Assembly: GCA_023267595.1 (NCBI GenBank)
Contig: JAHFNB010000002.1
Span: 23,947-87,946 of the forward strand
Source of the DNA: a bacterium
GTDB taxonomy: Bacteria > Patescibacteriota > Minisyncoccia > Phycocordibacterales > UBA5272
Direction: 5' to 3'
DNA: 64,000 nt
The notes beneath the pieces are model-generated. The model was not told the origin of the DNA. It ran no database searches and saw only the letters and a list, made by a program, of their open reading frames with translations. Within the stretch, counting starts at the first letter, position 1; each line of letters starts with the position of its first letter. Shown piece after piece: positions 4,406 to 58,139 of the stretch. Made by a program: the position numbers and the translations under genes.

Positions 4406-4480
4406 GGCCCTATCGTCTATCGGTTAGGACGTATCCTTCTCAAGGATAAAAGCGCGGTTCGATTCCGCGTAGGGTCACCA
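4406..4480 (+). tRNA. tRNA-Glu (anticodon CTC), CCA encoded
   Basis: Hand-folded cloverleaf: acceptor GGCCCTA/TAGGGTC, anticodon arm TATCC-TTCTCAA-GGATA, T-arm CGCGG-TTCGATT-CCGCG, discriminator A plus CCA. An extended -10 (tgtgcTATAAT) lies about 15 nt upstream. Confidence 0.85.
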
Positions 4481-4536
4481 ATTAGTGCTAGTACGAGAGG
4501 TATGAAATAAATTTATTCAGTGTTATTATTGACAGT

Positions 4537-6258
4537 ATGAGTTTTAAGTTTAAATCAGAGGATAAATCAATTGAAGAAGCTTTGTTTGGAATAAACAACC
4601 TAAGAGTTCCTCAGTTTCAAAGGCCTTACACATGGGAAGAAGACCAGTGCGGGGATTTTTGGAATGATCTAACTGATGATGATTCTTTTTTTCTGGGACA
4701 ATTTATTCTTAACTTCGAAAACAAGGAAAAGGAAAAATTTGTAGACATTGTTGATGGTCAACAAAGAACGACAAGTATATTAATACTATGTGCCGTTTTC
4801 CGCGATAAGTTAAAAGAGTTAGGTTTTAACGATGACGCAGATGTAATACAGGACAATGTGATGATTAGTAGAAAAAGTTTTGACGGGCCAGTCTTTAAGG
4901 TGCTGGTTTCACCCAACGTTAGTTCTTTTTTTGAAAAACACATTCAAACGGGTCAGAATGTGATTCAAACTAATACTTCATTTGATAATGATGAAGAAAA
5001 GAGGGTGATAAAAAACTATCTATTTTTTAAGGAGCAACTTAATGAACGCCTGTCTGGTTTAGATTTAAGTCATCAAGTCAAAGAAATAAAAAGAATTCAA
5101 ACTTTTCTGCTCAACACTAGAATAATTGTTACAGAAATCTATGATGAAAATGATGCTTATGAAATTTTTGAATCTGTGAATAATACAGGTATAGAGCTTG
5201 GGGTTGCGGACCTATTAAAAAATTTCTTGTTCAAGAGAGTTAAAATTGAAGAAGGGGGTTCAGTGTCAGATATAATGGATAAATGGAATGAAGTTTTAGA
5301 AAATGTCCAAAATTCTGAATTAACAAAATTTATAAGATATTATTGGCTTTCAAAACAAAAGGTTTTTGTAACTGAAGCAAAATTGTTTAAAGCAATCAAA
5401 AATCACCCTATAACCAGTGGTAAAGTATTACTACAAGAGCTTGTCGATAACGCTAAAATCTATTATGATTTACGAAACCCTCTTGATGCTGATTTTCAAA
5501 ATGTAGAGAACGTAGAAAGAGTTAGAAATTCCCTCATAGGAATAAGAGAGATGAATATTACTCAATGTTATGTTTTATTACTCTCTATCTATAGAAATAA
5601 AGATAAGATTAATACAAATTGGATAACAGTTTTTGAGCTTATTGAAAAATTTAATTTTATTTATCATGCTGTATCAAAATTACCAGCAAATAAGGTAGAA
5701 AAATTGTATCAAGAACTTGCCTTTAAAATAGAAGACATTGTAAACAAGAATGAAAACAGTGATTCGATGAGAGTTATTTTGGAAACTGAATTCAATAATC
5801 TTGAGAATAAATTAAAATCACTATTGCCCCCTAAAGAGGTTTTTATTCTAGGTTTTTCAGATCTCACTTATAAAAAGAAAGGTCTATGTCGATATACATT
5901 ATCAAAAATCGAAGAAAGTTTTGGAACCAAAGAGTATGTGCTTAACCACCCTACAATTACCATTGAGCATATATTACCTCAAAAACCTGGGAAAGACTGG
6001 AATTTAACATCCGGACAAATAAAAAACTATGTTCACAATATAGGTAATTTAACATTACTAGGTAAAAAACCTAATGGCACAGTTCAAAATAAGTCTATTG
6101 CAGATAAAATCATTATTTTAAAAGAATCAACAGAAGTAAAAATAACCCAGAAACTACTTTCTCAGATTGAGCCTACTGGTATATGGAATGAGGAATCTAT
6201 TAAAAGTCGAGCTATAGAGTTGGCAAATGTTGCCTTTGATAAGGTCTGGAAAATCTAA
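4537..6258 (+). CDS. GmrSD-family type IV restriction endonuclease-like protein (DUF262 N-terminal ParB-like NTPase + DUF1524 C-terminal His-Me nuclease)
   Basis: 573 aa. N-terminus has the DUF262 signature IVDGQQRTTS and FESVNNTG. C-terminus has the DUF1524 His-Me finger pattern IEHILPQ ... HNIGNLTLL ... N. Confidence 0.75.
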   Translation: MSFKFKSEDKSIEEALFGINNLRVPQFQRPYTWEEDQCGDFWNDLTDDDSFFLGQFILNFENKEKEKFVDIVDGQQRTTSILILCAVFRDKLKELGFNDDADVIQDNVMISRKSFDGPVFKVLVSPNVSSFFEKHIQTGQNVIQTNTSFDNDEEKRVIKNYLFFKEQLNERLSGLDLSHQVKEIKRIQTFLLNTRIIVTEIYDENDAYEIFESVNNTGIELGVADLLKNFLFKRVKIEEGGSVSDIMDKWNEVLENVQNSELTKFIRYYWLSKQKVFVTEAKLFKAIKNHPITSGKVLLQELVDNAKIYYDLRNPLDADFQNVENVERVRNSLIGIREMNITQCYVLLLSIYRNKDKINTNWITVFELIEKFNFIYHAVSKLPANKVEKLYQELAFKIEDIVNKNENSDSMRVILETEFNNLENKLKSLLPPKEVFILGFSDLTYKKKGLCRYTLSKIEESFGTKEYVLNHPTITIEHILPQKPGKDWNLTSGQIKNYVHNIGNLTLLGKKPNGTVQNKSIADKIIILKESTEVKITQKLLSQIEPTGIWNEESIKSRAIELANVAFDKVWKI

Positions 6259-6408
6259 ATCTACGCACGAGAAGGGTCAAAATGATATGCTAAAAACAAA
6301 CAAATAAACCTTGTGGGGGGGAATGAACCCATTAAGTTCTACCTGTTGAACGCTCACAGATAACAATGAGCAGTATTTTGGTGCGATTTTCATATTTGTG
6401 ATCCTATA

Positions 6409-6430
6409 GCAAGCCAACTGCTTGGCTTGC
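6409..6430 (+). repeat. Small hairpin GCAAGCCAA-ctgc-TTGGCTTGC immediately preceding structured element copy C
   Basis: Perfect 9-bp stem with the same ctgc loop as the hairpin that precedes copy B. Confidence 0.5.
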
Positions 6431-6433
6431 GAA

Positions 6434-6517
6434 GGAATCGAATAGGGGTCGAGGAGTCTCCTGTTTCGAACGAAGTAAGAAACGAGACGAGGTGACCGAT
6501 TCCGCGTAGGGTCACAG
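6434..6517 (+). repeat. Structured GC-rich element, copy C (GGAATCG...GAATAGGGGTCG...TGACC-GATTCC + tRNA-Glu 3'-end mimic)
   Basis: Shares the outer-stem architecture and GAATAGGGGTCG box with copies A (26863-26951) and B (56687-56789, minus strand). It ends with a 19-nt copy of the tRNA-Glu 3' end. Confidence 0.5.
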
Positions 6518-6594: not shown

Positions 6595-6623
6595 TTGACA
6601 AAGGTGTTTAAATCTGCTATAAT
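6595..6623 (+). promoter_or_regulatory. Sigma70-like promoter (TTGACA-17 nt-TATAAT) upstream of the 6755 gene
   Basis: cTTGACAaaggtgtttaaatctgcTATAATga matches the consensus. Confidence 0.4.
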
Positions 6624-6754
6624 GACACACAATAGTGGACGTGTAAATACCTTAGATTATCAACGTGTAATAACAACGATTTCTCTGGTATTTTATTTTC
6701 ACTCACTATTTTCAGAAGACACAGGACCGTTTTATGGAGCGTAACCATTAAACT

Positions 6755-7291
6755 ATGATCAAAAACATTTATAAGGTAAGTCAAATACTCGCGTTTGTGC
6801 CATTCATGGCCATCCCAAGTATCTCACTTGCTTCACATATTGGCTCACTGAAAACTGCTTCTGTAACCACAGAACAAGTCTCAGTTGAAGATCTCCGTCA
6901 AGAAAAAGCAGATGCCATCGATTCTTATTTTAAGGATCGTTCAATGCCACTTAAAGGTACAGGTATGACATTCGTACTCGTTGCCGAGAAGTATGGTCTT
7001 GATTGGCGTCTACTTCCTGCAATTGCAGTTCGTGAATCCTCAGGTGGAAAGAATGCGTGTGGAAACAATCCATTCGGTTGGGGATCATGTAAGTTACATA
7101 ACTTCGGAAGTTTTGAACAGGCTATTGAATCTCTAGGTAAAAACTTAGGAGGTGCTAACCCAAAGACTGCTCGATACTATGCTGGAAAGTCAACTGCAGA
7201 AAAGTTATATCACTATAACGGTACTGTACTTGCTACATATCCAGATGAAGTTACTGAAATTATGAAATTAATCGAGACCGATAATAGTTAA
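6755..7291 (+). CDS. Secreted peptidoglycan hydrolase-like protein (glucosaminidase / FlgJ-type lysozyme-like domain)
   Basis: N-terminal signal-like hydrophobic segment. The motif LLPAIAVRESSGGKNACGNNPFGWGS resembles the ALESGWG...NNLFGI core of GH73 glucosaminidase domains. Confidence 0.5.
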   Translation: MIKNIYKVSQILAFVPFMAIPSISLASHIGSLKTASVTTEQVSVEDLRQEKADAIDSYFKDRSMPLKGTGMTFVLVAEKYGLDWRLLPAIAVRESSGGKNACGNNPFGWGSCKLHNFGSFEQAIESLGKNLGGANPKTARYYAGKSTAEKLYHYNGTVLATYPDEVTEIMKLIETDNS

Positions 7292-8102: not shown

Positions 8103-8192
8103 GGAGAGATGGATGAGTGGTTTAAATCAACGGTTTACTAAACCGTCGACCTTTTATTAGGTCCGTGGGTTCGAATCCCACTCTCTCCGCCA
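8103..8192 (+). tRNA. Class II tRNA (long variable arm; anticodon loop TTACTAA gives apparent anticodon ACT, so assignment is uncertain)
   Basis: Acceptor GGAGAGA/TCTCTCC, anticodon arm ACGGT-TTACTAA-ACCGT, variable arm CGACCTTTTATTAGGTCC, T-arm GTGGG-TTCGAAT-CCCAC, discriminator G plus CCA. Confidence 0.7.
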
Positions 8193-26501: not shown

Positions 26502-26527
26502 CAAGTAGTGCTACGTGACAAACACCA

Positions 26528-26568
26528 GGGAAGAAGCGCCCGCCACGTAGTGGCGGGCGCTTCTTCCC
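26528..26568. repeat. Perfect 19-bp GC-rich hairpin (GGGAAGAAGCGCCCGCCAC-gtag-GTGGCGGGCGCTTCTTCCC)
   Basis: Seen directly between the two tRNA-Met genes. The GC content is very atypical for this AT-rich window. Confidence 0.5.
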
Positions 26569-26627
26569 ATTAACATAAGTACTATCTTTTATCGGGCTTA
26601 TGGGTTACAGTTATTAAATAAAAATAT

Positions 26628-26757: not shown

Positions 26758-26831
26758 GCAGTCGTAGCTCAGCTGGTTAGAGCACCGCCCTGTCACGGCG
26801 GGGGTCGTGGGTTCAAATCCCATCGACTGCG
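26758..26831 (+). tRNA. tRNA-Asp (anticodon GTC)
   Basis: Acceptor GCAGTCG/CGACTGC, anticodon arm CCGCC-CTGTCAC-GGCGG, T-arm GTGGG-TTCAAAT-CCCAT. Confidence 0.85.
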
Positions 26832-26839
26832 CAAAAAGT

Positions 26840-26857
26840 AACTGACCTATATCAGTT
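26840..26857 (+). repeat. Small hairpin (AACTGA-cctata-TCAGTT) preceding structured element copy A
   Basis: Same relative position as the hairpins that precede copies B and C. Confidence 0.4.
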
Positions 26858-26862
26858 GCGTT

Positions 26863-26951
26863 GGGATTTGAATAGGGGTTGCGAAATTACTTCGAGCCTG
26901 CCTCGCCGTTAGGCGGGCAACGCGAGGCAGGTTTGCGACCAAATCCTATCA
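26863..26951 (+). repeat. Structured GC-rich element, copy A (GGGATTTGAATAGGGGTTGCGAAATTACTTCGAGCCTGCCTCGCC...GCGAGGCAGGTTTGCGACCAAATCCTATCA)
   Basis: Nested inverted repeats GGATTTG/CAAATCC and CCTGCCTCGC/GCGAGGCAGG. Roughly 75% identical to the minus-strand element at 56687-56789, with compensatory changes. The 3' end mimics the tRNA-Asp 3' end (about 15 of 18 nt). Confidence 0.5.
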
Positions 26952-27002
26952 CTAGTAGTATTTGCATATTTTTCTCGACCATGTTAGATTTCACAATATT
27001 AT

Positions 27003-42588: not shown

Positions 42589-45500
42589 ATGAAAAATAAA
42601 TCAATGATTGGTGGACTTAAAGTTTCTTTAATTTCTTTGGTTGCAATGCTTGCAATGTCACAACTTGTATATGCAGATACAACATTATCTGTTTCAGGTA
42701 TTACAGTTGATAGTAAAGTGTATGATGGAAATACAACTGCAACTGTAAATACAACTGGTGCGGTCATATCAGGTATTTTAGATGGTGATGTTGTCACTCT
42801 TGATACATCAGGAGCAACATATACTTTTGCTACTTCATCAGTAGGTACAGGAATTTCAGTAATAGTTACTGGACTTACTGTAACTAGTGCTACAAGTACT
42901 GAGATATATACCCTTACGCAACCGACTCTCTCAGGAAATATAACAAAAAAGAATTTAACAGTTACAGGGATCACTGCATACAATAAGGTATATGATGGTA
43001 CTTTAACTGCATCATTAAATGCTACTTCTTCTGCGAGTCTTGTAGGAATTGTTAACAGTGAAGATGTAACACTAGATATATCTAGTGTTACAGGTGTATT
43101 TCTTAATAAAACTGTAGGGACTACAAAGACTGTAACAGTATCTGGATTGGCATTATCTGGTACGGCCAATTTAAATAACTATAGTCTTACTCAACCAACA
43201 ACAACCGCAGACATCACTCAACGTGATATCACCGTAACCGCAGTCGCACACACAAAGATGTATGACGGTACTACATCTGCAACAGGTACTCCTACTATTA
43301 CTTCAGGAACTCTTGCATCAGGTGATGCCGCAACCCTTACAGAAACATATGACACCGCAACTACAGGAACAGGAAAGACATTAACACCAGTTACTGTTAT
43401 TAAAGATGCTGGTCTTGTTGATGTAACTGCAAACTACAACGTAACTCCAGTAACGAATACTTCTGGTGTTATTGTTCAAGCACCACTTGTTATTACTGCT
43501 GCCGACAAAACTCGTGCATATGGTGTTGCTAACCCAACGCTTACTGTTACCTATTCAGGATTTGTTAACAGTGAAACTTCTGCAGTTGTAAGTGGTCTTG
43601 CAATTAATACAGTTGCTTCTTCTACAACAAATGTTGGCACAGTTTCAATTGTTCCATCAGGCGCAACTGCAACTAACTACAACATTTCATTTGTTAATGG
43701 AACACTTACTATCACACAAGCAGCACTTTCTGTAACTGCAGACGCACAAACAAAAGTGTATGGTAACTCAGATCCTTCACTGACGTACACTTCAAGTGGT
43801 CTAGTTAATGGTGATACTCTTTCAGGTGCACTTACTCGTGCTGCAGGAGAGAATGTGGGGACAAAAGCAATTACACAAGGGACTCTTACCGCAGGGGGAA
43901 ATTACAATATTTCTTACACAGGAGCCAATCTTACAATTACTACTCGTCCAATCACCATAACTGCTGCTGCTCACACAAAGATGTATGACGGTACTACATC
44001 TGCAACAGGTACTCCTACTATTACTTCAGGAACTCTTGCATCAGGTGATGCCGCAACCCTTACAGAAACATATGACACCGCAACTACAGGAACAGGAAAG
44101 ACATTAACACCAGTTACTGTTATTAAAGATGCTGGTCTTGTTGATGTAACTGCAAACTACAACGTAACTCCAGTAACGAATACTTCTGGTGTTATTGTTC
44201 AAGCACCACTTGTTATTACTGCTGCCGACAAAACTCGTGCATATGGTGTTGCTAACCCAACGCTTACTGTTACCTATTCAGGATTTGTTAACAGTGAAAC
44301 TTCTGCAGTTGTAAGTGGTCTTGCAATTAATACAGTTGCTTCTTCTACAACAAATGTTGGCACAGTTTCAATTGTTCCATCAGGCGCAACTGCAACTAAC
44401 TACAACATTTCATTTGTTAATGGAACACTTACTATCACACAAGCAGCACTTTCTGTAACTGCAGACGCACAAACAAAAGTGTATGGTAACTCAGATCCTT
44501 CACTGACGTACACTTCAAGTGGTCTAGTTAATGGTGATACTCTTTCAGGTGCACTTACTCGTGCTGCAGGAGAGAATGTGGGGACAACAACGATAACTCA
44601 AGGGACACTTAATAATACTAACTATAGTATTACGTATACTCCTGCAAACTTTGTGATTACTCCAAAACCAATTAACGTAGTAGCAAATGCGTTAAGTAAA
44701 GAACGACTAGCATCTGATCCAACACTCACATATACAGGAACATCATCACTTGTTGGAGTAGATACCTTTTCTGGCGCTCTTACACGTGCTACAGGGGAGA
44801 CAACAGGAACATATGCAATTTCTCAAGGGTCACTTTCTGCAGGAAGTAATTACACCATTAGTTTCACTGGAGCAAATTTCACTATTGTTGATACAACAAT
44901 ACCAACTCTTTCAGTAGTTTCTATTGTATCTAATAATGCAAGTACTACTCTTGCAAAAGTAGGTGATACAATAACAGTTTCATTTACTGCAAGTGAAGCA
45001 CTTAGTATTCCAACAGTAACTATTGCAGGTCAGTCTGCAACTGTATCTGGAACAACAACAAGTTGGACTGCAACGTATACAATGCAATCTGGAGACACAA
45101 CAGGTACAATTCCATTTACTATTACCTTTGCAGATATTACAAGTAACGCAGGTGTACAAGTAACTGCAACGACAAATGCAACAAGTGTTCTTTTTGATAA
45201 AACTGCGCCAACAGTAAGTATTGTATTTGCTGACACTGCGATGGGATTAGGAGAAACATCTCTTGTAACATTTACATTCTCAGAACCGGTGACAGGATTT
45301 GATAATACAGATATAACAATGCAAAATGGAACACTTACAACGGTTGCCTCAACTGATGGAGGTATTACATTTACAGGGACATTTACACCAACAGGCGGTA
45401 TTATTGTAAATACAAATGTAATGACAATAGGAAGTGGGTATGCAGATCTCGTAGGAAATGGAGCCGCATCATCTACTAATTCTTCTAATTATCAAATCAA

Positions 45501-56294: not shown

Positions 56295-56612
56295 TTACAA
56301 CACATGCATTTCGATTTCTGGGAATTCGGTTGCTAGGAGAAGATGCGGTTCTTTCCTTTCTATCCTCCTTAGTTCCATAGACCCTCGTGGTAGACGAATC
56401 CATGTAAATGTCAGTACATCATATCTGACGAGTTTGTGTTCTTTTAAAAGAAATAATACTCTTTCGACAGTTATTCGAGAACATTGTTTATTGAATCTAC
56501 TTTTAATTCTTCGAGAAACCGCAAGTGAAGATGTGCCGCGTTCAAAATGATCTGGAATACTTGTCACTGATGCAAGTACACGGACATATTTTTTTGATCC
56601 TAAGAAATACAT
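56295..56612 (-). CDS. Hypothetical basic protein (weak resemblance to RNase P protein RnpA)
   Basis: 105 aa, Arg/Lys-rich. Segments LAVSRRIKSRFNKQCSRITVERV and YDVLTFTWIRLPRG loosely resemble RnpA motifs. This is a weak call; the overlapping + strand ORF looks non-coding. Confidence 0.25.
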   Translation of the reverse strand: MYFLGSKKYVRVLASVTSIPDHFERGTSSLAVSRRIKSRFNKQCSRITVERVLFLLKEHKLVRYDVLTFTWIRLPRGSMELRRIERKEPHLLLATEFPEIEMHVL

Positions 56613-56686
56613 GAAAAATCTCCCTGTTTAGAATCTTTTGTACAAACCCATTTATAGACTACTACAGAAAAAAATATTTGTATACT

Positions 56687-56789
56687 TTGTGCCGGGGGTG
56701 GGACTTGGTCACAAAACTACCTCGCATTGCTCGCCTGCCGGTGAGGTAGGCTCGAAGTAGTTTCGCGACCCCATATTCAAGTCCCACAC
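56687..56789 (-). repeat. Structured GC-rich element, copy B (minus-strand sense GTGTGGGACTTGAATATGGGGTCGCGAAACTACTTCGAGCCTACCTCACC...GCGAGGTAGTTTTGTGACCAAGTCCCACCCCCGGCA)
   Basis: Homologous to copy A with compensatory changes in both stems. Its last 21 nt (plus-strand TTGTGCCGGGGGTGGGACTTG, 56687-56707) exactly duplicate the 3' end of tRNA-Leu at 56841-56861. It is preceded in the minus-strand sense by hairpin AAAAGTGAC-ctgc-GTCACTTTT (56790-56810). Confidence 0.5.
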
Positions 56790-56843
56790 AAAAGTGACGC
56801 AGGTCACTTTTTCCCAACACAAAATCATTTCATTCTTTTTTTG

Positions 56844-56924
56844 TGCCGGGGGTGGGACTTGAACCCACACACCTTACGATACACGATTTTGAGTCGTGCG
56901 CGTCTACCATTCCGCCACCCCGGC
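56844..56924 (-). tRNA. tRNA-Leu (anticodon CAA), class II
   Basis: Minus-strand fold: acceptor GCCGGGG/CCCCGGC, anticodon arm CACGA-CTCAAAA-TCGTG, long variable arm, T-arm GTGGG-TTCAAGT-CCCAC. Confidence 0.85.
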
Positions 56925-57035
56925 TTTGATGTGAGTATTCTAGCATACTGTGTGCGTAAAAAGTATTTGTATTTCTGCCAACTAATAACTATTAACTACT
57001 AACTATCTTTGATATACTTTTGACATCATACACTT

Positions 57036-58139
57036 ATGGGAAACATTGAAGGCAATATTTTTTGGATAGAAACAGAGAAAATCATACCAAATCCGTACCA
57101 GCCACGGCGTGAATTTGATCAGGATAGATTGAAAGAATTATCTGACAGTATTCGTCAGTATGGAGTATTACAACCTCTTGTTGTATCACGGCAAGAAACA
57201 GTTTCGACTGACGGTAGTGTCAAAGTAGAGTATGAATTAATAGCAGGGGAACGCCGTTTGCGTGCTTCACGTCTTGCGGGACTCACTCAGGTGCCTGTCG
57301 TTGTGCGTACAGGGGATGATAGTCGTGCAAAATTGGAACTTGCAATTATTGAAAATCTTCAACGTGAAGATTTAAATGCAGTAGAACGTGCTCAATCATT
57401 CCAACGGTTAGCAGATGAGTTTAAATTGACATGGGCAGATGTTGGAAGAAAAGTTGGAAAGAGTCGTGAATATGTTTCGAATACTGTTCGTATCTTAATG
57501 CTCCCACAAGATATATTAGATGCTCTTTCAAAAGGGCAAATTAGTGAAGGTCATACACGACCACTTCTTATGCTTATCGACAGACCACAAGAGCAGATGA
57601 CGCTCTTTAAAGAAATGATGGTGCGTAAAATGACAGTACGTGAAGCAGAAAGTATTGCACGACGTATTGCATTTGAAAAAGTTCGTAAGAAAGATTTCTT
57701 CATGACACCAGAAGTGGTGGATATGGAAGAAAAACTCGCCGAAACATTAGGGACACGTGTACAAATAGAACCACGTGAACGTGGTGGGCGTATTTGGATA
57801 GATTATTTTTCTCATGAAGAATTACTCGCTTTATCTGTTGCAATTCGAAAAGCAGGTGAACACAAAACGCATAAAGGAATGTTTGATACTATCAAAGAAG
57901 AAGATATGGAAACATTGCGTGCACAAGGGGAAAGTCCTCGGCATATAGAACCAGTGACAGAGTTTACACATTTAGCACATGAAGATGTTGGAAATGAAGT
58001 AACACAAACCTCAAGTGAAGCAATAGAACAAGATGTGTATGGAAAAGAAACTGTTGCTATTGATGATAGATCTATTGCAGAAGTAAAAGCAGAAGAACAA
58101 AGTGATGATCTCTATAATGTTAAAAACTTCGCAATTTAA
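57036..58139 (+). CDS. parB: ParB/Spo0J family partition protein (with long C-terminal extension)
   Basis: ParB N-terminal domain with the LIAGERRLRAS arginine patch and HTH region; no adjacent parA in the window. Confidence 0.85.
   Translation: MGNIEGNIFWIETEKIIPNPYQPRREFDQDRLKELSDSIRQYGVLQPLVVSRQETVSTDGSVKVEYELIAGERRLRASRLAGLTQVPVVVRTGDDSRAKLELAIIENLQREDLNAVERAQSFQRLADEFKLTWADVGRKVGKSREYVSNTVRILMLPQDILDALSKGQISEGHTRPLLMLIDRPQEQMTLFKEMMVRKMTVREAESIARRIAFEKVRKKDFFMTPEVVDMEEKLAETLGTRVQIEPRERGGRIWIDYFSHEELLALSVAIRKAGEHKTHKGMFDTIKEEDMETLRAQGESPRHIEPVTEFTHLAHEDVGNEVTQTSSEAIEQDVYGKETVAIDDRSIAEVKAEEQSDDLYNVKNFAI

Follow-up and report, generated by a model that had tools for sequence, protein, structure and literature searches.

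Why should the 3' end of a tRNA gene occur a second time, a short way downstream, with no gene in between? The question was raised by a 64,000-nt stretch of contig JAHFNB010000002.1 (GenBank assembly GCA_023267595.1, Patescibacteriota), referred to here as the window, in which the minus-strand gene for tRNA-Leu(CAA) is followed by an exact duplicate of its own 3' end. A previous, sequence-only reading took the interval for an island without cargo. Our analysis showed it to be a unit, designated copy B, of a structured non-coding family that stands behind tRNA genes in Patescibacteria. We interpreted it, tentatively, as a tRNA-anchored RNA cassette.

The repeat and the unit behind tRNA-Leu(CAA)

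The duplicate was 22 nt long (CAAGTCCCACCCCCGGCACAAA, identical between 56840-56861 and 56686-56707), one more than the 21 nt first noticed, and it started 135 nt past the tRNA end called by ARAGORN, as had been claimed. In tRNA-Leu it runs from C56 of the T-loop to the discriminator and through the following CAAA. The 21-mer CAAGTCCCACCCCCGGCACAA occurred exactly twice in the 64 kb, at 56841-56861 and 56687-56707; 100 shuffles contained it not once. The independent Logan assemblies of two runs, SRR14366791 and SRR14366796, included the same stretch unchanged, with the two copies of the repeat. This excluded an assembly artefact.

The unit of copy B, counted from C56 of the tRNA to the end of P2 (56861 down to 56708), is 154 nt long and has no room for an open reading frame (ORF). 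Its parts are listed in Table 1. The anti-acceptor strand can pair, two G.U wobbles included, with the acceptor-3' strand CCCGGCACAAA in either copy of the repeat. The hairpin H1 reads, in DNA letters, AAAAGTGAC-CTGC-GTCACTTTT. The anti-T strand pairs with CAAGUCCCAC of the repeat, which comprises nucleotides 57-60 of the T-loop and the 3' strand of the T-stem, and the GAA that spans the border between this strand and the bulge is the complement of T54-T55-C56. P2 carries an extra apical hairpin, which was also present in copy C (below) and in locus L001. The sequence-only reading had recognized the hairpin with the CTGC loop at 56790-56811; its spacer of about 33 nt measured 31 nt, and both the anti-acceptor strand UUUUGUGUUGGG and the pairing of GUGGGACUUG had escaped it.

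Folding of copy B (a 147-nt stretch) gave -73.3 kcal/mol, compared with -41 +/- 4 for shuffles (z = -7.98). The predicted structure was a three-way junction formed by an acceptor-like stem, by H1 and by a stack of P1 on P2. Its topology is close to that of a tRNA with one hairpin standing in for the D and anticodon arms. When the tRNA was included, the minimum-free-energy fold switched, so that the antisense arms paired with the genuine tRNA 3' end and the downstream repeat paired with the 5' acceptor strand of the tRNA. In this modelled conformer, the 154-nt unit has the appearance of an insertion at T-loop position 55/56.

No terminator-like site was detected in 56500-57100, including the interval between tRNA-Leu and copy B, and no promoter-like site separated the two. 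Copy B is therefore probably co-transcribed with tRNA-Leu. Copy B did not itself resemble a rho-independent terminator, as no GC-rich hairpin with a U-run was found at 56500-57100. A search of 56600-57000 against Rfam 15, whose families include hammerhead, twister, pistol, hatchet and HDV-like ribozymes, YrlA and tmRNA, returned nothing relevant at E <= 10, and a search of the whole window at the gathering score returned tRNAs only. A hammerhead-like or other ribozyme core in the element was considered and rejected, as CUGAUGA/GAAA was absent and there was no Rfam match.

Table 1. Features of copy B and of the elements and islands discussed with it (window positions, except where a locus is named)
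Feature	Position	Strand	Basis or remark
tRNA-Leu(CAA), intact, no encoded CCA	56844..56924	-	ARAGORN; Rfam tRNA model, 62 bits; lower coordinate 56843/56844 (ARAGORN and Rfam)
Direct repeat copy 1: tRNA nt C56-A73 + CAAA, within the functional tRNA	56840..56861	-	exact 22-nt match
A/U-rich spacer, 15 nt, in place of the usual A-run/GC-stem/U-run palindrome	56825..56839	-	
Anti-acceptor strand UUUUGUGUUGGG, 12 nt	56813..56824	-	sequence; paired in minimum-free-energy fold
H1: 9-bp hairpin, CUGC loop	56790..56811	-	
Anti-T strand (P1 5' strand) GUGGGACUUG	56778..56787	-	
Unpaired bulge AAUAUGG, family consensus GAAUA(N)GG	56771..56777	-	invariant columns, alignment A1
P2: long hairpin, 64 nt, base GGUCG.../...UGACC with invariant G.U	56707..56770	-	
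Direct repeat copy 2 (tail): P1 3' strand + acceptor-like 3' strand	56686..56707	-	
Island with GmrSD (type IV restriction), without recombinase, tRNA-Glu to copy A	4481-6357	+	
Copy A, behind tRNA-Glu(CUC) (4406-4480), past the GmrSD island	6398..6515	+	
Copy C, directly behind tRNA-Asp(GUC) (26758-26832)	26838..26955	+	
Two large serine recombinases (Resolvase + Recombinase + Zn-ribbon domains)	L048, between tRNA-Ala and element		
Island ends with GTTCCAACTT	L048 6982-7010 and 7817-7845; L030, L040, L076, L100, L101		

A structured family of Patescibacteria

The covariance model of the element, R1, matched the window exactly three times, at 82.5, 76.4 and 65.1 bits, which bore out the earlier view that copy B has two relatives there. 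All three contained GAAUA(N)GGGGUYG...GYGAC, after which the local tRNA was repeated from C56 onward. In copy A, the tail of 19 nt (6497-6515) matched tRNA-Glu from C56, the H1 hairpin (6409-6430) had the CTGC loop of copy B, and the fold had the same architecture (z = -4.4). In copy C, the tail was decayed by transitions and the loop of the hairpin (26838-26859) was CUAUA. The shared CTGC loop thus held for the copy behind tRNA-Glu and not for the one behind tRNA-Asp. Copies B and C were 83.7% identical over P1-P2, had a rare apical insertion in common, and differed by compensatory changes.

A near-consensus sigma-70-type promoter (TTGACA ... TATAAT) was noticed at 6595-6630 (plus strand), just downstream of copy A and before an ORF at 6755. 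This position, past copy A, indicated that copy A is not the leader of the downstream gene.

A pattern scan over species-representative genomes found at least 116 loci. Among the matches listed, 83 of 138 had an intact P1, and these were essentially all in Patescibacteria metagenome-assembled genomes (MAGs), labelled Saccharibacteria, Nomurabacteria, Paceibacterota, Parcubacteria and Gracilibacteria; the GC-rich rest of those listed were chance matches. R1 identified 115 copies across 67 Patescibacteria loci. In these sampled loci a copy lay within 400 nt downstream of 78 of the 134 tRNAs (58%), and at least 18 tRNA isotypes carried one behind them. Among the 2.9 million viral contigs of IMG/VR, there were two chance pattern matches, neither of which fitted the covariance model. 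Rfam 15 gave no match for the element or for its alternative modules (below), and no description of it was found in the literature searched. The element is a previously undescribed structured non-coding family of Patescibacteria, absent from Rfam and from that literature.

The canonical order began with the tRNA and a long, perfect palindrome of A-run, GC stem and U-run. Next came a segment that was either anti-acceptor or generic, then H1, the trinucleotide CGU, the anti-T strand with GAA at its end, UA(N)GG and P2, and a tRNA copy starting at C56 closed the order. The family consensus read ...YG-AAUA(N)GG-GGUCG...UGAC-CRANNCC, and its GAAUA motif usually lay about 85-95 nt past the tRNA end, with a mode near 90 nt. 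The 5' half of the element is the antisense of tRNA nucleotides 54-74, split by H1 at 65/66. The palindrome between tRNA and element, as seen in other loci, is bidirectional-terminator-like and forms a separate part. H1 had 9 bp in 65 copies and the CUGC loop in 67, and its stem sequence covaried. When alignment A1 was inspected by eye, no covariation was apparent between the H1-loop variants (CUGC, CUUC, CUAC) and an optional base in the bulge.

A consensus with H1, P1 and P2 was derived from an alignment of 69 copies. The cells assigned to pairs were paired in 95.1% of cases, compared with 36-44% when the partners were slid. Compensatory cells numbered 417, compared with 140 +/- 10 in shuffles, and none of the 500 shuffles attained 417. 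Covariation was seen in 19 of the 27 pairs, including all 8 of H1. The wobble pairs were strongly biased, with 200 G.U and 7 A.C in P2 and 85 and 17, respectively, in P1, and the G.U in the base of P2 was retained in 67 of the 69 copies. This excess of G.U over A.C showed that the fold is selected on the single strand of the tRNA sense. The G.U share of 17% speaks for RNA, not a DNA hairpin; judged by its pairing, the element is most likely an RNA.

The slot between the anti-T strand and the copy started at C56 was not reserved for the R1 module. At tRNA-Leu(CAA), 120 metagenome loci contained several unrelated module families in this slot, indicating that the scaffold is more general than the R1 module.

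At least three further module families were observed, at L118, L139, L152, L190, L136, L179, L221, L184, L167, L160, L213 and L236 and at L026, L057 and L069; none is in Rfam. One of them had ...GUACUG and a hairpin at its end, one had the sequence GAAKGGCSGCAGUGAUGUUU...GUAGC, and 150-nt versions contained an extra hairpin instead of the GAAUA(N)GG bulge.

Probable insertion, stacking and neighbouring islands

About 45 duplicates of a tRNA end were found downstream of tRNAs. Nearly all started exactly at C56, most of them after ..GUGAC, and the other module families likewise ended at C56. Among 98 non-redundant tRNA-Leu(CAA) loci, some had a unit and others did not. In 20 of them miaA directly followed the tRNA, and at least 14 had a unit, with several module families represented; in L158 and L185 the unit stood between the tRNA and miaA. 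L150, with no unit, and L190, with two stacked units, had the same tRNA and upstream flanks that were 97.5% identical. The L190 contig stops 16 nt past the last repeat, so this pair could not show a precise insertion.

Stacked units were present in L006, L066, L089, L101, L149 and L190, and units of unlike type occurred behind one tRNA. Some internal junctions of the array in L026 retained just 7 nt of the T part. The same types of P2 and H1 recurred behind different isotypes and in different genomes. About 10% of the H1 hairpins (L066, L101 and L107 among others) were hybrids, with mismatched halves and a switch of partner precisely at the CUGC loop, and a 182-nt tandem unit in L075 begins at the CUGC loop.

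A partial duplicate of another kind was noticed behind tRNA-Leu(CAA) in L148. It starts in the anticodon loop (CAAAATCGTGTATCGAAAGGTGTGAGGG...) and is the signature of another integrative element, with an anticodon-loop crossover.

The sequence-only reading had likened copy B to the tRNA-Glu island, with the repeat of copy A as attR, and had offered, as one of two possibilities, a minimal or decayed island with the downstream repeat as its attR. Six loci had more than 1 kb between tRNA and element. In every cargo whose distal end was examined, the island had its own end upstream of the spacer and element, and none of 118 copies had a cargo of its own. The GmrSD island of the window ends at about 6334-6357, some 40 nt before copy A and 140 nt before the repeat of copy A. 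With the island ending upstream, the repeat at 6497-6515 belongs to the element and is not the attR of the island. The approximately 95 nt past the GmrSD stop codon (6264-6357) recurred at an unrelated island end in L075, pointing to an island backbone or end sequence that the two have in common. GmrSD as a cassette cargo of the element was rejected, as its homologues (58-90% identity), several of them behind tRNA-Glu or tRNA-Gln, had no R1 element in the available flank.

In L048, the right junction of the island that encodes the serine recombinases read ...GGTTCCAACTTTTCGTGACGAT/GTCCAC, followed by the terminator palindrome of the tRNA and then by the element. In L076, L101 and L040, palindrome and element were preceded by this island end with an acceptor remnant, and the island end was also present in L030 and L100. 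Serine-recombinase genes lay antisense over tRNA 3' halves in L048, L097 and L100. These features define a serine-recombinase island family that targets the acceptor-3' end of Patescibacteria tRNA genes. Its conserved right end was GTTCCAACTT(T)TCG(TC), after which came the terminal 6-18 nt of a tRNA.

Clustering of the ORFs of at least 100 aa in the 67 loci revealed no enrichment of recombinases near the elements. The commonest cluster, an RluA-like pseudouridine synthase, was merely syntenic with tRNA-Leu, and the serine recombinases seen near elements belong to separate islands. No IntI-like cluster was seen in flanks of up to 8 kb. We concluded that islands insert between the tRNA and an already resident element, and that the cargo-less layout is the normal state. 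The decayed-island view with its attR was not supported by these results; the other suggestion made with it, of a structured module with cargo genes inserted behind it, agrees better with the observations.

Readings as a retron, group II intron or SINE-like element were rejected for want of a reverse transcriptase. In a published survey, group II introns were not reported in Patescibacteria (PMC13011429).

Some further features of the window were recorded. The locus of copy B has ParB, RelA/SpoT, MiaA and glutaredoxin as neighbours, and exact-protein look-ups with ParB and MiaA returned the same strain alone. Logan unitig assemblies of the source organism break inside tRNA-Leu and tRNA-Glu (L239-L242, L252-L253); tRNA segments that are common to co-occurring Patescibacteria and repeated by the elements are a likely cause of fragmented MAGs. 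A second tRNA-Ser, with anticodon ACU (8103-8192, plus strand; 58 bits with the Rfam tRNA model), lies 12 nt behind tRNA-Ser(GCU). The GCU/ACU pair was also present in L005 and L100, and in L100 the 3' half of the ACU gene is overlapped in antisense by a large-serine-recombinase gene. A tRNA-Ser with A34 is unusual in bacteria, and this one may have been supplied by an island. A perfect GC-rich palindrome, GGGAAGAAGCGCCCGCCACGTAGTGGCGGGCGCTTCTTCCC, lies between two tRNA-Met genes (26519-26569, plus strand) in a genome of 36% GC. A tandem duplication with a 723-bp period (43213-44235, plus strand; family D1) consists of two 300-nt copies, 96% identical, within coding sequence.

Cassette, trailer or recombination site

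We interpret copy B as a unit of a non-coding, tRNA-anchored RNA cassette that inserts and persists at tRNA 3' ends by means of portable tRNA homology and without a recombinase of its own, and we put the probability of this reading at about 0.45. It draws on features observed here: the anatomy of the unit, its covarying fold and strand asymmetry, the size and host range of the family, the boundary at C56, the stacked units, the hybrid hairpins and the independence from gene-carrying islands. Transcription of the element, its way of moving and its role as an RNA we infer. The unit consists of a tRNA 3' end, a spacer (in most members a long terminator-like palindrome), the antisense of the last 20 or so tRNA nucleotides, split by H1 at the boundary of acceptor and T-stem and ending in GAA, and a bulged hairpin module. 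The antisense arms would pair with the second copy of the tRNA end, from C56, to form a tRNA-like rod with a three-way junction, probably within a transcript that copy B shares with tRNA-Leu. At the DNA level, the unit behaves like an insertion at the tRNA 3' end, with direct repeats of that end on both sides, and its H1 and P2 modules are exchanged between loci. It may spread via RecA-type or short-homology recombination, possibly after DNA uptake, or through a recombinase acting in trans.

Several points weigh against the cassette. In most members, a strong terminator-like palindrome parts the tRNA from the element, which disfavours simple co-transcription. The 150-bp unit has no obvious vehicle, and none of the 2.9 million viral contigs carries it. 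An empty and a filled locus with both flanks identical were not found. Where tail and tRNA differ, the anti-T strand fits the tRNA better in 17 cases and the tail in 7, and a perfect anti-acceptor tends to accompany a tail without the acceptor part (rho = -0.31, p = 0.04). These data indicate that the closed tRNA-like fold of copies A and B is not conserved family-wide, and the selected pairing partner may be the real tRNA end. The conserved features are H1, P1 over about 7-10 bp, the bulge, the base of P2 and the complementarity to the real tRNA end. This complementarity could be kept by selection on the precursor RNA, or, by analogy with established quasi-palindrome mutagenesis, by template-switch correction in the quasi-palindrome of tRNA end, palindrome and antisense. 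For a unit to be retargeted to another tRNA, three separate segments would have to undergo matching changes. As to the nature of the element, a folded single-stranded DNA that tolerates G.T pairs is a conceivable alternative to RNA. Finally, part of the data is explained equally well by a host-functional trailer of ancient origin that is inherited vertically and exchanges modules.

Such a trailer would be a fixed part of the tRNA transcription units of Patescibacteria, its arms pairing with the upstream tRNA end in the read-through or precursor RNA. The long duplex could be used in RNase III-type processing or in quality control, or it could insulate the genes downstream; the downstream copy of the tRNA end would be an internal competitor that closes the arms, and mobility would amount to duplication and gene conversion only. 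The preference of the anti-T strand for the tRNA over the tail (17 versus 7) is in line with this, as are the anti-acceptor, which covaries with the tRNA acceptor across orthologous loci (L017 GTGGGCAAT versus L077 GTGGGAGAT), the invariant GAA, which complements the universal T54-T55-C56, and the fold with the tRNA included, in which the arms pair with the genuine tRNA end. L017 and L077, from different genomes, have the same decayed tail, which points to vertical inheritance; 58% of the sampled tRNAs have the element, and its G.U-rich helices point to RNA. On the other hand, the element is absent at many orthologous loci, including the 20 tRNA-Leu(CAA)-miaA junctions that leave no room for it, and is thus not essential. 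Several unrelated module families share the slot, stacks of unlike units and hybrid H1 hairpins indicate insertion and recombination dynamics, pairing with the real end of the tRNA would compete with the folding of the tRNA itself, and copies separated from the tRNA by kilobases of island DNA stay intact (copy A, L048, L104). We regard the trailer as unlikely on balance. It is doubtful, too, that the element is a protein-less mobile RNA or single-stranded DNA cassette guided by its split antisense arms to nucleotides 54-74 of a tRNA gene and joined there at T-loop position 55/56. The arms (anti-acceptor, H1 and anti-T...GAA) would then position the bulged hairpin and the unit would bring a replacement tRNA 3' end, while in the transcript the unit, by swapping partners, could resemble a T-loop 'intron' with juxtaposed ends. 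Different structured payload modules would occupy one slot.

A folded single-stranded DNA recombination site, equivalent to attC or to the forked attP of CTX phage and served by a trans-acting recombinase, seems to us improbable. P1, bulge and P2 would rebuild the duplex 3' end of a tRNA gene, with the T-loop in the role of attI and the 7-nt CRANNCC as the core site. The two helical boxes with a one-sided unpaired spacer and a variable terminal structure would fit, as would a structure conserved more than sequence, the strand-specific fold, the arrays behind one tRNA with the L026 junctions of 7 nt of the T part, and the sharp breakpoints at C56 and in the H1 loop. The lack of a recombinase in cis is also known from integrase-less attC clusters. 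On the other hand, the R''/R' consensus (RYYYAAC/GTTRRRY) is absent and no IntI-like gene was seen in flanks of up to 8 kb. The 17% of G.U(T) pairs and the invariant G.U typify RNA rather than DNA hairpins; the elaborate and diverse internal modules are unexpected in a mere recombination site, and the gene cargo examined belongs to other islands. Still more improbable is a decayed integrase-type island, of which copy B would be the attL/attR scar without cargo and the conserved module the island end. A direct repeat of the tRNA 3' end that starts in the T-loop is the hallmark of T-loop-class tRNA integration, and copy A does lie at the far end of a gene-carrying insertion. Against this, none of the 118 copies has its own cargo, the cargo examined has a separate end upstream, no integrase is associated, double-stranded att arms leave a strand-specific covarying fold unexplained, and a position about 90 nt from the tRNA is simply the modal position of GAAUA. 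A second tRNA-Leu pseudogene, a chance repeat or an assembly artefact is already refuted. The fold has a tRNA-like topology, with one hairpin for the D and anticodon arms; however, ARAGORN and the Rfam tRNA model call the upstream tRNA alone and not copy B, the T-loop is paired in the fold, and the same H1 and module stand behind at least 18 isotypes. The repeat arose in 0 of 100 shuffles and was identical in two independent assemblies. The probability beyond these readings and the cassette is left to explanations that we have not thought of.

The cassette shares traits with several known systems. Genomic islands and cis-mobilisable elements at tRNA genes have the same site at the tRNA 3' end, the direct repeat from the T-loop to the 3' end, and stacking. 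The element differs from them in being 150 nt long and non-coding, in lacking an integrase in cis, and in its strand-specific module and tRNA antisense; the islands with large serine recombinases or GmrSD in the same genomes have their own junctions, between tRNA and element. Integron attC sites and cassettes, including the integrase-less clusters, resemble it in the bulged strand-specific hairpin, the two boxes, the one-sided spacer and the arrays. However, the element has no RYYYAAC/GTTRRRY core, no IntI that was seen, an 'R box' that is the T-arm of each tRNA, G.U-rich helices with elaborate conserved modules, and no promoterless ORF cassettes of its own. In the folded single-stranded attP of CTX phage, inverted copies of the target likewise anneal in one strand to give a duplex image of it; the target of the element is a tRNA 3' end, not dif, and IMG/VR held no true match.

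Repetitive extragenic palindromes (REP), bacterial interspersed mosaic elements (BIME), other repeated extragenic palindromes and miniature inverted-repeat transposable elements are also short, non-coding, multi-copy intergenic hairpins without transposase. The element, unlike these, is strictly tied to tRNA 3' ends, oriented and sequence-matched with its own tRNA; it has a three-way junction with conserved loop and bulge, and no terminal inverted repeats or transposon-type target-site duplication. Viral tRNA-like structures and the tRNA-linked RNAs mascRNA, YrlA and 3'ETS-leuZ have a coaxial stem like that of acceptor and T-arm, near or from a tRNA, with possible co-transcription. In the element, on the other hand, a paired extension and P2 replace the T-loop, the D and anticodon arms are missing, pairing of the acceptor is not conserved throughout the family, and Rfam gives no match. 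The guides of group I and II introns and the bridge RNA of IS110 contain segments complementary to the flanks of their own insertion point, and the alternative fold of the element would approximate an insertion at T-loop position 55/56 with its two ends side by side. The element differs in having no ribozyme core, reverse transcriptase or DEDD recombinase; it brings its own 3' 'exon', and no splicing is needed. When the comparison with IS110 bridge RNA was tested, no adjacent recombinase was found, and the tRNA-complementary segments of the element were fully paired in cis.

These results carry a caution: repeats of tRNA ends in these genomes should not be taken for the att sites of islands. 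The covariance model R1 allows the family to be annotated. If the guided cassette were true, a target would be chosen by pairing with conserved tRNA sequence and host enzymes would suffice; if the arms do act as guides, nature would here provide a case of base-pair-programmed insertion at a safe site, with the target gene left intact. Patescibacteria, with their tiny genomes, account for a large part of bacterial diversity and are poorly understood. In these organisms the element could represent a major unrecognized class of non-coding RNA in tRNA expression, or a highly successful selfish element that exploits the genome's most conserved sequences as portable homology, or both.

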